This document shows, one piece after another, positions 11,812 through 16,303 of a DNA stretch of 64,000 nucleotides. How positions within the stretch are numbered: the first letter of the stretch is position 1; every line of letters starts with the position of its first letter. This DNA is from Candidatus Bathyarchaeota archaeon (GTDB lineage: Archaea > Thermoproteota > Bathyarchaeia > Bathyarchaeales > Bathycorpusculaceae): the NCBI GenBank assembly GCA_963815095.1, contig CAWFFH010000003.1, forward strand, positions 1,376,001-1,440,000, written 5' to 3'. The notes under the pieces are model-generated. The model did no database searches. It saw only the letters and a list, made by a program, of their open reading frames with translations, and was not told where the DNA came from. The position numbers and the translations under genes were made by a program.

Positions 11812-11884
11812 AGCCCGGTGGTGTAGTGGTCAAGCATAGAGGGCTTTGGACCCTTTGACGAGAGTTCGAATCTCTCCCGGGCTA
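11812..11884 (+). tRNA. tRNA-Gln (TTG)
   Basis: Acceptor AGCCCGG/CCGGGCT, anticodon arm GAGGG-CTTTGGA-CCCTT, T-arm GAGAG-TTCGAAT-CTCTC; no intron, CCA not encoded. Confidence 0.93.
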
Positions 11885-12092
11885 CTTTTCGCGCATCTTG
11901 AGTTGGAGTTTTTATTCAAACCATTAAGCGAGATTAAGATAATATTAGATCGAACATCAAAGGTCAAACCACCCCAAAGATAAGGCAGGTTTTAGATAAA
12001 CGGACCCGAGAGTTCGGGCGCGGACTTAGTATTAACTTCGAAAATTCGTCAATTAGATAGAATAAGATTCACGTTAACTTTACGATAACAGT

Positions 12093-13196
12093 TTAGATTT
12101 TCACTTTGCAAATTTCGTATACAATCAAATGCGGATATTTCAAGTAAAACCTGTATAAATGAGGATTTTCTTTTTCCAATTCAACACTTGGATTGGGCTC
12201 ATAAATCCTAAAAATAGCCAAGGAATTCTCGCTAAGAGCGCTCGTCATTTCATCAAGGGTAAACCAATGGTGCGGATTGTCTTTAGCATTGTACTCTATT
12301 TTGTAATTAGGCAAACGTCCATGAAAGCGTCCTTTGCTTGAGGAAGTTATGCCTTTCGCAAGTTGACCAAAAAACGGATGCGCCTCAATAATAAAAAATC
12401 GACCCTCATCTTTCATAACTCTTCTAATTTCGCTTAAAGCCTGAGTGAAATCCTTATGATTATGCATTTGTCTACAATAGTCAAAACTCACAATCGTATC
12501 TATCGCGACAATATAGTCAAACTTTTCAGACGGCACATTTTTTGCAAAATCAAGAAAATCCCCCTGCAAAAACTCTACATTTTCAAGTCCTAGTCTTTGC
12601 TTAAGTTCATTTGCTTTCGAAATCAGAAATGCACTTCTGTCAATTCCAGTTACGTGTGCTCCATGTTTGGCTAAAATCTTGGAAAAGTAACCTGGTCCAC
12701 ATCCAAAATCGAGGATTGTCTTTCCAGATATTTTTTCTTTTGTAAAAAATTGGGTAACGAAATTTTCTACACAATATTTGTAGTATACTCGGCTTTCAGG
12801 TCGTATGTCTGAAACGTCATCGTAAAATTTCATTTTAAACCATTTTTCCATAGTCCCTTGCTGCTCATCATATTCCTTCAAAGTCTCACCCATTGCAGTT
12901 GTTATTGAATTGTTGACAGCCGACGCCACCAGCTTATTGATGTTTTGCAGGGACATATTTGAACCATAATTGTCTATGATTTTTTCGCCAAATGCAGAAT
13001 TTAGCCATTCTTTGTACTCGGGCAACATTTTTTCGATGACTTCACGGACGGTTGATTGCAGTTTTGCATAAATTTCTGGATCTAACTTTTCAAAATATGG
13101 AAGTTTTTCCGAAGGTGCGTTCAGGCGTTGATTTTGTTTTTTGGTTTTTGTATGTCTTTTAGAGAGGGTTTTGGTTGTTGGTTTATTTTTAGGCAA
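12093..13196 (-). CDS. Class I SAM-dependent methyltransferase with N-terminal domain homologous to the adjacent precursor peptide
   Basis: Motif I ILDFGCGPG, VTGIDRS, EFLQGDF, KFDYIV, RVMKDEGRF, HPF; residues 31-108 align with the precursor leader and follower. Confidence 0.88.
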   Translation of the reverse strand: MPKNKPTTKTLSKRHTKTKKQNQRLNAPSEKLPYFEKLDPEIYAKLQSTVREVIEKMLPEYKEWLNSAFGEKIIDNYGSNMSLQNINKLVASAVNNSITTAMGETLKEYDEQQGTMEKWFKMKFYDDVSDIRPESRVYYKYCVENFVTQFFTKEKISGKTILDFGCGPGYFSKILAKHGAHVTGIDRSAFLISKANELKQRLGLENVEFLQGDFLDFAKNVPSEKFDYIVAIDTIVSFDYCRQMHNHKDFTQALSEIRRVMKDEGRFFIIEAHPFFGQLAKGITSSSKGRFHGRLPNYKIEYNAKDNPHHWFTLDEMTSALSENSLAIFRIYEPNPSVELEKENPHLYRFYLKYPHLIVYEICKVKI

Positions 13197-13375
13197 AAAT
13201 AATCGCTGCTCTCTTTATGATCTCTCAAGATAATATTTATGTTTTTTTGCAGGATATGGAATCAAAAAGGAAACTGGCGGAATGCAAAGAAAAATGGTAG
13301 CCACTACACCTTTACTGCGTAAATGGTCGAGCGATTTTCAGTTAATGGCGTTCGGTTTCTGAACTGCGAAGCTTC

Positions 13376-13834
13376 TTATTTGAACTGCTCTTTCAAAGCT
13401 TGACGAATTGCTCCCATCATAGCCTCGTTGACAGCATTAACAACCTTGTCATCAATGTTTTTAGCTGGCGTGGGACATTGGTTGCTGCATGCACTGCACA
13501 ATTGTGTTGGGCAGTCATTTCCACATGAACTACACAGCTCTACTGGACAATCGTTTCCACATGAACTACAGATTTCTACCGGGCAATCGTCGGCTGCTAT
13601 CAATGAAGAATTTACCCATCGCTGATATTCCGGCAAAGTTTTTGCTACAGCATCACGTATTGTTGATTGCAGCTTTGCATACATTTTAGGATCCAGTCTT
13701 TCAATAGTTGGCATTTTTGCCAAAGTTTTCTGTAAACGCTTCTTTTGGGCTGGAGTCAATTTTTTTTCCAATGGAACAGCTTTTGATTTTTTTAAGGAAG
13801 AGTTGAGTATACGTTTATTTTTTGCCAAAAACAA
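13376..13834 (-). CDS. Putative RiPP precursor with Cys-rich 12-aa repeats flanked by leader and follower
   Basis: Core DCPVEICSSCGN-DCPVELCSSCGN-DCPTQLCSACSN-QCP (10 Cys); lies between rSAM/SPASM and methyltransferase genes on the same strand. Confidence 0.8.
   Translation of the reverse strand: MFLAKNKRILNSSLKKSKAVPLEKKLTPAQKKRLQKTLAKMPTIERLDPKMYAKLQSTIRDAVAKTLPEYQRWVNSSLIAADDCPVEICSSCGNDCPVELCSSCGNDCPTQLCSACSNQCPTPAKNIDDKVVNAVNEAMMGAIRQALKEQFK
13472..13588 (-). repeat. 36-bp coding tandem repeat (3 copies plus a partial) in the precursor core
   Basis: tttccacatgaactaca occurs at 13518 and 13554, 36 nt apart; the third copy is more diverged. Confidence 0.9.
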
Positions 13835-13916
13835 TCACTACATTGAGGTATTAACTCGCTTTATTTAATGTTTATTGTGAAGTAAAGTTGGGGGCTGGAT
13901 TATTGGACAGAATTCT

Positions 13917-15332
13917 TCAACCGTTGGCTTCTGAACATTGGTTTTTTTGAGATTCCAGCAAGAAATTGTATGAAATTAGGAGCTTTAGTATTTCATTTTG
14001 AAAAGCACAGAAGTAGTCTTCTTTTATGCCAAGTTGGCCAGTTTTAACATAGATATCGTAGGCGCATCCTCCGCCGCAAATTCCAATCGCCGCACATCGC
14101 ATGCAATCTTTATTTTTTAGAGTGCCTATTTCCAGCCATTTGTGAAATAATGGTTCTTCTTGAATTTTCAAATCATCTTTAATTGGAATTTGACATTTAC
14201 CCGACGGATAGAACGCATGACATGGTCCGACTGTTCCGGTTGGCGAAAAAAATAGTAGCTGACCAAAGGCTGGGCAATCATATATGTGAAATATTTCTTT
14301 GAAAAAATAATTTGCTCGCCGATTATCAATGCGATCTTCAAACATGTGTAATTCTTTTGCTCTCAAGTAGGCCGCAAAAAGATGATGCGCAAGCTTTTTG
14401 GGATCTGGCACCTCAAATTCGGTTGGCTCTTTAAGTCTGGTTAACAAGTTGAAGCCTATGGTTCTGATTCCCAGTTTTTGGATAAACTCTATTATTTCTT
14501 CTGCGTGCTCATAGTTCTGTTTTGTGATTGTGCATGATATTCCTATATTTAAGCCTGCTTCTTTCAGAAGAGCCAACGCTTTAAGTGCTGAATAGAAGGT
14601 TTCTTTTCCATCGGTGAAAACGCGGTTTCTATCAATGTTGGCCCATCCGTCAAGCGACAATCCAACGGCAACGTCGTGTTTTTTAAGTTTTTTAGCTATC
14701 TCTTCGGTTATTAGGCTCCCATTTGTTACGCAGGAAAACAGGAATTTCTTAGATGCCTGCTCGAGCTTCTCAATAATGTAGAAAACAATTTCGCTGTTGC
14801 TAAACGGCTCTCCCCCATAAAATGTAACCCTGAATTCTGGAACTTGCTTTGCCTCGTTGATTAGAACATTTATGACTTTATCCGCTAAATCCTTGGACAT
14901 CACTGTACTTGGTCTTTTCAGATTGTTTTCTATAAAACAGTAACCGCACCTGAAATTGCAGAAGTCAGTCACCAAAATATAGCCAAGGCTAGGTTGGGGG
15001 CTTTTCCTAAGCAAGCTGGCAGCAACGGCATCAAACACTTTTTTCGCATCAAAACCCCGAGGGACAACAAATTTTAGTTCAATTAACTCCTTGATGTCGC
15101 TACTGCGGATTCCGCTGCTTAGATCTGCCAAAATCTTTTCGTACTTTTTGTTGGTTAAATATATTTTTTTGAGAGTTAAAGAATTGAAAAGGCACTTCGT
15201 TGATTCATCAATATCGAACAGGTGGACAAACGGCGAAAGAATTAACTGGGCAGACTCTTCTCGGAGCATTTGCTTAGAAGGCTGGTTCTTATTTATAATC
15301 TCATTAACATCTTTAGACTGTTTTTTGCTCAT
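13917..15332 (-). CDS. Radical SAM/SPASM-domain peptide maturase with probable N-terminal RRE
   Basis: CNFRCGYC, FYGGEP, TNGSL, SLDG; SPASM cysteines YDCPAFG..GPCH..DCMRCAAIGICGGGCAYD..FC; about 110-aa N-terminal extension. Confidence 0.9.
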   Translation of the reverse strand: MSKKQSKDVNEIINKNQPSKQMLREESAQLILSPFVHLFDIDESTKCLFNSLTLKKIYLTNKKYEKILADLSSGIRSSDIKELIELKFVVPRGFDAKKVFDAVAASLLRKSPQPSLGYILVTDFCNFRCGYCFIENNLKRPSTVMSKDLADKVINVLINEAKQVPEFRVTFYGGEPFSNSEIVFYIIEKLEQASKKFLFSCVTNGSLITEEIAKKLKKHDVAVGLSLDGWANIDRNRVFTDGKETFYSALKALALLKEAGLNIGISCTITKQNYEHAEEIIEFIQKLGIRTIGFNLLTRLKEPTEFEVPDPKKLAHHLFAAYLRAKELHMFEDRIDNRRANYFFKEIFHIYDCPAFGQLLFFSPTGTVGPCHAFYPSGKCQIPIKDDLKIQEEPLFHKWLEIGTLKNKDCMRCAAIGICGGGCAYDIYVKTGQLGIKEDYFCAFQNEILKLLISYNFLLESQKNQCSEANG

Positions 15333-15520: not shown

Positions 15521-15988
15521 ATGAAGAATATAGACCAACCCAAGGGTGAGTCTCCATCCCAGCTTATAGACGCAAGAATCCAGCAGCTAGGCGACTGGCG
15601 CGGAGAAATGCTTTCCCGCATCCGCGCTTTGATCAAGCAAGCCGACCCTGATGTCGTGGAGGAAGTAAAGTGGATAAAACCCACCAATCCATTGGGAGTT
15701 GCGGTTTGGTCTCACAAAGGGTTGATTTGCACCGGTGAAGTCTACAAAAATGCCGTAAAGATGACCTTCCCCAGCGGTGCTTCTTTGAGCGACCCTTCGG
15801 GTCTTTTCAGCTCCTGTCTCGAGGGTAGCGCGAGGCGTGCAATTGATTTCCACAAGGGTGAAAAAGTCAATGAGGAGGCCCTGAAGGCTCTTATTCGTGC
15901 AGCGTGGCGCACAACATCTCCTCTAACTGAGCCAGATAAAGAGAAAGGTGTATGTAAATTCCCTGCTCATTTAAGATTGTTGTCTTAG
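15521..15988 (+). CDS. DUF1801 (YdhG-like) protein, C-terminus probably frameshifted
   Basis: IDARIQQLGDWRG, EEVKW, VWSHKGLICTGE, ASLSDPSGLF, RRAIDF; apparent 1-nt loss near 15904. Confidence 0.8.
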   Translation: MKNIDQPKGESPSQLIDARIQQLGDWRGEMLSRIRALIKQADPDVVEEVKWIKPTNPLGVAVWSHKGLICTGEVYKNAVKMTFPSGASLSDPSGLFSSCLEGSARRAIDFHKGEKVNEEALKALIRAAWRTTSPLTEPDKEKGVCKFPAHLRLLS

Positions 15989-16303
15989 CCCAACCACGTT
16001 TCCGTCAACGTCCTTGACCTGAGCTATCAATAAACGGCCACCTACGTCCTTAACATCTTGTACAACAACAGCACCGACCTTAACCATTGCTTGGAGACTG
16101 CTTTTGATATCCTTTACATCAGTGTAAGCAATGGGTCCCATCTTAGAGTTAGGGTCTAAGCCGACTTCCATGTTGCCAACCTTATAGCCTACATAGTAGG
16201 GGCTTGCGACATACGGTTCGGCGTCTAAAAACTTGCTATAAAATGCTTTAGCTTTTTCTACATCTTTAACCGGATAGACAATAAGTTTAATGTTTTGTGA
16301 CAT
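15971..16303 (-). CDS. VOC/glyoxalase family protein
   Basis: YPVKDVEKAKAFY, VKDVGG..LIAQVKDVDGNVVGL. Confidence 0.85.
   Translation of the reverse strand: MSQNIKLIVYPVKDVEKAKAFYSKFLDAEPYVASPYYVGYKVGNMEVGLDPNSKMGPIAYTDVKDIKSSLQAMVKVGAVVVQDVKDVGGRLLIAQVKDVDGNVVGLRQQS

Follow-up and report, generated by a model that had tools for sequence, protein, structure and literature searches.

A Bathyarchaeial radical SAM/SPASM cassette with a Cys-repeat protein and a methyltransferase bearing a core-less version of that protein's frame

In the Crp cluster of Methanococcus voltae, CrpC, an archaeal radical S-adenosylmethionine (SAM) enzyme with a seven-Cys SPASM domain, installs ranthionine links on the Cys-repeat protein CrpA (PMC13692751, 2026). 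In that work, the crosslinks are localized to motifs of four to five residues in which the Cys precedes the acceptor, the CrpA repeats contain C-X-X-Q/D, and CrpB, which shares the N-terminal 47 residues of the substrate, raises the modification upon coexpression. There is therefore now a precedent for a SPASM enzyme of an archaeon forming thioethers on a Cys-repeat protein. Here, we describe a cassette from a stretch of 64,000 nucleotides (nt) of a Candidatus Bathyarchaeota archaeon (GenBank assembly GCA_963815095.1, contig CAWFFH010000003.1, positions 1,376,001 to 1,440,000), hereafter the window, whose own numbering is used throughout. This cassette, which encodes a radical SAM/SPASM enzyme, a protein with an internal Cys-repeat array (the precursor), and a methyltransferase, is a real and undescribed variant of radical-SAM protein tailoring. 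No description of it was found in a literature search that left most subscription journals and several supplementary figures outside its reach (S3, S4, and S25 of PMC13692751; S10-S12 of PMC10288494), and the supplement text of PMC13692751 does not contain the string "Bathyarchae".

An earlier note on this DNA had proposed three co-oriented genes coding for a CxxxCxxC radical SAM enzyme with a SPASM Cys set, a protein with a 10-Cys triple-repeat core, and a class I methyltransferase, and all of these are borne out: three open reading frames (ORFs) lie on the minus strand at 13917-15332 (471 residues), 13376-13834 (152 residues), and 12093-13196 (367 residues). None of the three genes is disrupted, they occur together across loci, and purifying selection acts on them. 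Among 27 loci with a close relative of the radical SAM enzyme (at least 67% identity, frameshifted genes in long-read records being counted as present), the Cys-repeat gene is found in 26, a methyltransferase bearing the substrate frame in 22, and a gene for a B12-dependent radical SAM enzyme in 21. Moreover, the radical SAM and precursor genes occur in the identical 22 of 120 genomes of the genus, 19 of which also have the B12 enzyme; this co-occurrence had been set beforehand as a check on the proposal, which passes it, and the figures are raw counts over genomes and loci that are kin and not independent. The precursor family is narrow, being present in 4 of 401 genomes of the class, and a profile search of 1.84 billion representatives returned 18 proteins, 17 of them family members or fragments and one a weak Cys-repeat match. 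The cassette is found in one genus of Bathyarchaeia, and 27 of 29 related loci are named Candidatus Bathyarchaeota. The sequences on either side of the cassette mostly differ from locus to locus, so it appears to move as a block. If antisense shadow ORFs are left out of account, each further gene family is seen in at most 4 of 28 related loci, and therefore there is no conserved protease or exporter, as the earlier note had stated for the cluster; a P450 or MNIO partner does not recur across these 28 loci either.

The maturase (13917-15332, minus strand) consists of an N terminus (residues ~25-110) resembling a recognition element (RRE) of RiPPs (peptides made by the ribosome and modified after translation), the CxxxCxxC motif at 125-132 (C125, C129, and C132), and a SPASM domain with seven Cys. 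With PF04055, the enzyme reaches 81 bits (cutoff 29.5). The SPASM cysteines 353, 371, 410, 413, 419, 423, and 442 are retained in 21 of 21 close and 2 of 2 distant homologs of the alignment, two unrelated neighboring ORFs that also entered it being left out of the counts, and an eighth, C380, is private to the window enzyme. Because the Pfam SPASM model gave no match at an E value of 0.1, the SPASM assignment rests on this Cys pattern together with the best match in the Protein Data Bank (PDB), CteB (PDB code: 5WGG), aligned over residues 100-428 with an E value of 1.5e-24. The second-best PDB match is the cyclopropyl synthase TigE (PDB code: 8VPO). A GYW motif before the SPASM domain marks cyclopropyl synthases (PMC10878394), and this motif is absent from the enzyme and its alignment. 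For the N-terminal ~110 residues, a 12-row profile finds the RRE of TigE (RRE = residues 3-85) as its best PDB match with an E value of 0.013, and this part also matches, at 0.90, an Atlas cluster in which PqqD accounts for 11% of the members. Six active-site proximity residues defined on CteB (PMC10288494) read F-Y-V-S-H-A here and F-F-T-S-H-Q in CteB, being identical at three of six; this profile is compatible with ranthisynthase-like chemistry but non-diagnostic. The best NCBIfam scores are 178 bits for FibroRumin (TIGR04136, cutoff 400) and 155 bits for PapB (NF047865, cutoff 340), whereas the Crp model (TIGR04463) scores 94.2 against a cutoff of 525. No NCBIfam cutoff is reached, and the RRE signal is weak. 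Pairwise ratios of nonsynonymous to synonymous substitution rates (dN/dS) are 0.07-0.08 in the catalytic and SPASM parts. As judged from sequence comparison, the nearest models and structures of this enzyme are thioether-forming or Cys-peptide maturases.

The substrate protein (13376-13834, minus strand; the start codon is possibly two codons later than the 152-residue call) has a basic tail and helices predicted at residues 28-39, 49-81, and 125-150, the last two of which enclose an acidic Cys loop. All 10 Cys lie within residues 82-123 (13466-13591, minus strand), in three 12-residue units of the form C-P-x3-C-S-x-C-x-N-D/Q. A protein search found 158 relatives, and in the best 120 of these 158, to which the repeat statistics refer, there are 286 CxxC units whose 12-residue spacing holds in 161 of 166 intervals, which argues that the array is not due to chance. 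In the same set, proteins with 1, 2, 3, 4, and 5 units number 4, 74, 35, 6, and 1, respectively, the core consensus is C-P-x3-C-S-x-C-x-N-D/Q, and the position +3 from the second Cys of the CxxC is D or Q in 97% of the 286 units. In the window core, 6 of 10 Cys stand in C-x-x-D/Q/E, and CX3D, the substrate motif of PapB, does not occur. A tryptic digest is predicted to release all 10 Cys in a single peptide of 53 residues (monoisotopic mass 5437.2 Da). In a 52-row alignment, conservation of the flanks is 64-75%, the basic tail excepted; dN/dS is 0.13 in the core and 0.17 in the helix that corresponds to residues 37-68 of the methyltransferase. An AlphaFold2 model built on those 52 rows shows confident long helices at 49-81 and 125-150 (pLDDT, the local confidence score of the model, ~90; predicted template modeling score 0.49) and a loop of low confidence at 81-123 (pLDDT <50), and the precursor is thus predicted to be a helical hairpin with the Cys loop between its arms. 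The segments that the earlier note had taken for a leader and a follower are better read as the arms of this predicted hairpin, which also occurs as a fusion with the methyltransferase. A fold search with this model gave generic helical matches only (Z ≤ 5.7), and no usable Atlas match was obtained, neither of which indicates a new fold; set beside the five-helix leader of borosins, the model shows a long helical hairpin. No Pfam or NCBIfam family, metal-protein models included, matches the precursor, no hydrophobic signal or transmembrane stretch is found in it, and neither flank of the core shows an evident cleavage motif. A helical-wheel look for a wide oligomerizing face gave no decisive pattern. 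Contigs identical to the precursor are present in three RNA libraries from two studies (two of the libraries probably being one data set, and no DNA control being available), and sequencing runs yielded small shares only, 0.21 at most.

Residues 1-44 of the precursor have an isoelectric point of 11.4, against 4.1 for the acidic core. The basic part is a Lys-rich, poorly conserved, and predicted-disordered tail, and such a tail starts both the precursor (13703-13834) and the methyltransferase (13089-13196). Also, deep-branching cassettes (loci L016/L132, L018, L027, and L015; L and P numbers are our own handles for related loci and proteins) have variant cores, either 10-residue repeats with Trp or CxCxxC clusters, with longer followers, and in them, extra SPASM radical SAM genes replace the B12 radical SAM enzyme and the methyltransferase.

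The third gene (12093-13196, minus strand) encodes a class I Rossmann methyltransferase, as shown by PF13847 (93 bits) and by fold searches (Z up to 19), with a catalytic domain at residues ~116-367. What the earlier note had overlooked is its N-terminal domain (residues 1-110; 12867-13196, minus strand), which is derived from the precursor. Residues 1-~110 match both precursor arms without the core (BLASTP E value 2e-17), with identities of 20/35 and 10/26 to the precursor helices, and at the DNA level, a 124-nt repeat with 72% identity is shared between the precursor gene and the gene segment for this domain. The structure model retains both helices in residues 1-110, joined by a short Cys-free loop instead of the Cys core, and traces of one core unit persist in the corresponding domains of P0156, P0162, P0164, and L020. 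In a tree of the core-less frames (77 columns, midpoint root, row P0167 omitted), 27 methyltransferase N-domains are split from 33 precursors by a branch with support of 98/93, a topology that fits a single fusion event. In pairwise comparisons of 17 methyltransferase genes, the helix at 37-68 has a dN/dS of 0.23, the second helix one of 0.62, and the catalytic domain one of 0.14; therefore, the leader-like helix is kept as protein, whereas the follower-like helix is kept loosely.

P0193, one of the remoter methyltransferases, is a fusion with the tail of a SPASM enzyme resembling those of L028 and L029, which ties this methyltransferase clade to the radical SAM clade beyond the genus. Moreover, the N-terminal extensions of P0179-P0208, P0193, and P0221 are short and conserved but do not resemble the scaffold of the Bathyarchaeia; these extensions may copy the leaders of their own precursors. 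Profile searches for genes of the P0179-P0208 type found none in five locus genomes, the own genome only among 401 genomes of the phylum, and none in 401 genomes of the phylum of L029; a metagenome scan for their context with generic motifs returned unrelated methyltransferases only.

The three-gene system proposed in the earlier note is a real cassette, but it is not the complete form. In the normal cassette, a gene for a 529-residue B12-binding radical SAM enzyme sits between the precursor and the methyltransferase, being present in 21 of the 22 loci that have the methyltransferase; the one of L002 scores 157 bits with the ApyD model (cutoff 750) and 149 bits with TIGR03975 (cutoff 282). In the window, 49 nt (13247-13295, minus strand) of the 180-nt spacer that precedes the methyltransferase match the start of this gene and correspond to its first ~16 codons, with identities of 78-94% to related loci and 85-92% to the closest ones. 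The reading frame of this relic translates like the N terminus of the B12 enzyme, and the relic abuts the upstream region of the methyltransferase. In 7 of the 27 loci, and in the second cassette of this same genome, two precursors flank the B12 gene in a five-gene form. Down to 13451, the window follows the letters of the first precursor at 109 of 126 diagnostic sites, whereas the downstream spacer follows those of the second precursor at 76 of 92, and a 104-nt block composed of the relic and the upstream region of the methyltransferase recurs behind the second precursor in seven five-gene loci. From these sequence comparisons, the window cassette is a deletion derivative of a four- or five-gene cassette, the simplest history being a recombination between the two precursor paralogs of a five-gene array, at some point between ~13450 and ~13330. 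A separate loss, with other breakpoints, is observed in L020 at the site where L012 retains the B12 gene, and L015, L016, and L018 also have cassettes without this enzyme. What the window contributes is evidence that the three-gene form arose by natural deletion of the B12 enzyme, its remaining genes being intact.

A collapse of the assembly at this place is improbable, because 13309-13459 is covered by identical short contigs from DNA (which may stem from the campaign that yielded the window) and 13371-13631 by such contigs from RNA, and because seven other loci have the relic junction as well. No identical contig bridging the junction from the relic to the methyltransferase was found. The second cassette of the genome (C3:1518878-1524289, L133) has five genes, with apparent single-base insertions in the radical SAM, B12 radical SAM, and methyltransferase genes.

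The reading that we favor, with a probability of about 60%, is that the maturase staples the Cys loop by thioether bonds from residue i to residue i+3, that the product is also methylated, and that the protein stays intact in the cytoplasm. Helices 49-81 and 125-150 would present residues 82-123 as a loop, an arrangement that would let the number of repeats range from 1 to 5 while the frame stays the same. By analogy with the chemistry of CteB, PapB, and CrpC, the RRE-like domain would bind the N-terminal part of the precursor, and a 5'-deoxyadenosyl radical would abstract a side-chain hydrogen. A core Cys bound at the open iron of a three-Cys auxiliary cluster I (AuxI) would then close a non-alpha thioether, with a loss of 2 Da each, and the likely acceptor would be the D, Q, or E three residues downstream of the Cys. 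We infer short thioether staples on some of the Cys because of the model matches, the CrpC precedent, the 6 of 10 Cys in C-x-x-D/Q/E, and the absence of GYW. On the other side of the cassette, the methyltransferase would likely use its core-less frame to pair with the substrate helices or to fill the same docking site on the maturase, and either event would bring its active site to the Cys loop. The best single guess for the methyl acceptor is a Cys left free, which we offer tentatively. In the full cassette, the B12-dependent enzyme would add C-methyl groups, and the window product would lack this modification unless the second cassette supplies the enzyme in trans. Binding of metal by the remaining CxxC thiols would be the most likely use of the product. 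A more doubtful extension is that the core-less hairpin co-assembles with precursors in a mixed bundle, where the methyltransferase would be a subunit of a scaffold displaying stapled, methylated, and metal-binding loops. An intact intracellular protein, as suggested in the earlier note, would fit the conservation of the helical flanks and the absence of any signal or transmembrane stretch and of a conserved protease.

Several observations speak against this reading. The chemistry is extrapolated, because no NCBIfam cutoff is reached and the best score is less than half of its own; the RRE evidence is weak (E value 0.013), and the proximity profile, compared with CteB only, is unlike it at three of six positions. 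For the methyltransferase, the fold searches tie O-, N-, S-, and C-methyltransferases, the follower-like helix of its fused domain is weakly constrained, and ~30 remoter relatives (P0179-P0208, 50-60% identity) have short and different extensions in place of the precursor-derived domain, so this domain is dispensable for the catalytic fold. As for the substrate, CxxC is the sole element that is invariant across all variants, the deep-branching L016, L018, L027, and P0231 do not have the C-x-N-D/Q spacing, which fits metal binding equally well, and TigE, the second-best structural relative of the maturase, makes C-C bonds.

The points on the substrate and on TigE would also suit an alternative in which the small protein is a metal or Fe-S carrier with its CxxC-x3-CP as free ligands, while the radical SAM enzyme performs C-C or C-H chemistry on residues other than Cys or acts on a bound cofactor. 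The window core has three CxxCxxxCP strings, which is the second half of the ferredoxin motif, and the polyferredoxin model FwdF gives a faint match (E value 0.005) in 2 of 52 homologs. Also, PMC13692751 presents most archaeal Cys-rich proteins as predicted metal binders. However, the complete ferredoxin motif CxxCxxCxxxCP and CxxCH are both absent from the window core, and no metal-protein family matches the precursor. Neither the GYW motif of the enzyme nor a conserved Val/Ile position in the Cys repeat is observed, and the three-Cys AuxI site is the arrangement proposed in PMC13692751 to bind a substrate Cys. In view of this, we consider a plain metal carrier unlikely, although it survives better than the other alternatives.

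Slightly less likely than the carrier is a conventional multi-core RiPP, in which, once crosslinks and methyl groups are in place, a protease encoded elsewhere would excise the loop or its units to give a small product, secreted or intracellular, and the helices would be bipartite recognition sequences only. The variable number of cores, the multi-copy precursors, and the orphan precursors of L128 and L130 would agree with it, and the best matches of the B12 enzyme, ApyD and the C-methyltransferase model TIGR03975, are RiPP enzymes. Nonetheless, a protease or transporter is recurrent in none of the 28 loci, even if a trans-acting protease would escape such a scan of flanks; the flanks are as conserved as the core with no evident cleavage motif, and PMC13692751 presents CrpA, the closest precedent, as a protein that carries modifications. 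Finally, it is improbable that the three-gene copy is a decaying or partial derivative that needs the B12 enzyme, with the fused domain a passenger from a fusion that captured a precursor promoter and start, since, against the near-constant presence of the B12 gene beside the methyltransferase (21 of 22), the apparent frameshifts of the second cassette, and the homology of the sequence ahead of the methyltransferase with that ahead of second precursors, the three window ORFs are intact with window-versus-relative dN/dS matching the family (mostly inherited history), the B12 enzyme was lost independently in L020 and is missing from L015, L016, and L018, purifying selection acts on the fused helix (dN/dS 0.23), and, as a weak argument, precursor-identical contigs occur in RNA libraries.

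Regarding the remaining features, an AT-rich stretch at 13230-13249 (minus strand), before the methyltransferase, is common in the alignment to the upstream region of second-precursor genes; it resembles an archaeal TATA box and B recognition element (TATA/BRE), and we take it to be a putative promoter from inspection by eye against the archaeal consensus. An Rfam scan of the locus found only a transfer RNA (tRNA), and a sigma-70 promoter scan is not applicable to archaea. This tRNA-Gln(TTG), at 11812-11885 on the plus strand, is convergent with the three ORFs. A link of the cassette with tRNA integration was dismissed as incidental: a tRNA of any kind is found in 2 of 30 related loci, neither being Gln, and a duplicated tRNA 3' end was looked for and not found. 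Upstream, the neighbors at 15521-16303 are a DUF1801 protein and a glyoxalase-family protein, which are not recurrent beside related loci. The orphan precursor genes (L128:6494-7009 and L130:6667-7098) stand without enzymes, with a full cassette elsewhere in the same genomes, and each adjoins a protein of ~820-840 residues with a signal-like N terminus. The distant relatives of the maturase in L028 and L029, which score 263 and 246 with FibroRumin TIGR04136 (cutoff 400), also adjoin short Cys-rich ORFs. In L028 (41-4060, Bathyarchaeota), a 43%-identical B12 radical SAM enzyme, a 57-residue alternating-Cys peptide, a FibroRumin-like SPASM enzyme, and a further radical SAM-like ORF are found, the same enzyme pair thus accompanying an unrelated short precursor; in L029 (5513-7173, Myxococcales), an 82-residue Cys-rich peptide precedes a FibroRumin-like SPASM enzyme. 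The genome of the window itself is dense in B12-dependent and other radical SAM genes at C3:425000-511000 and 798000-801000 (tblastn).

Bathyarchaeia are largely uncultured, and the cassette is compact and open to heterologous expression, as CrpA/CrpC was. If the favored reading is true, protein-level thioether chemistry would extend to an internal loop and be combined with two kinds of methylation. The methyltransferase offers a natural case of an enzyme that bears, as a fusion, the frame of its likely substrate without the core, and if pairing through this paralogous frame takes place, it would be a recognition strategy absent from the literature searched; a mixed bundle, in turn, would be a portable scaffold for loop display with a tunable number of repeats. 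Moreover, the window is a natural deletion mutant, whose intact three-gene version separates the roles of the SPASM enzyme and the methyltransferase from that of the B12 enzyme.

Comparison with known systems places the cassette between several of them. As in Crp, a SPASM radical SAM enzyme with seven SPASM cysteines and an RRE, here only RRE-like, stands beside a Cys-repeat protein with C-X-X-Q/D, and the product would likewise be a modified protein rather than a short peptide. However, ten 17-residue repeats make up a C-terminal core in CrpA, whereas here a 12-residue repeat is internal and followed by a conserved helical segment; the described Crp cluster has no B12 radical SAM enzyme or methyltransferase, and CrpB is a free protein that copies the N terminus only, in contrast to the copy described here, which covers both flanks and is part of an enzyme. 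The CxxxCxxC and seven-Cys SPASM layout and the Cys-rich substrates are shared with the CteB, PapB, and FibroRumin maturases, although the substrate of CteB and PapB is a short leader-core peptide instead of a predicted 152-residue hairpin, and CX3D is absent from the core. With TigE, the cassette shares the structural match, including a weak one to the RRE, and a repeat-motif precursor, but not the GYW motif, and its repeat is based on Cys without a conserved Val/Ile. The pairing of a B12 radical SAM enzyme with a SAM methyltransferase is like that of the aminopyruvatide enzymes ApyD/ApyS; in contrast to aminopyruvatides, the ApyD and TIGR03975 scores are far below their cutoffs, P450 and MNIO partners are missing, and the B12 gene is deleted in the window. 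In borosins, as described in PMC8429565, the methyltransferase is also linked to the precursor via a helical leader domain, fused in OphMA or acting in trans in the split SonM/SonA; unlike them, the enzyme here is of the class I Rossmann type with no borosin match, its fused part is core-less and coexists with a separate full precursor, and the cassette is built around radical SAM enzymes. Judged by sequence, then, the cassette would work like Crp and the ranthipeptide maturases, being a member of neither by score or by substrate layout.

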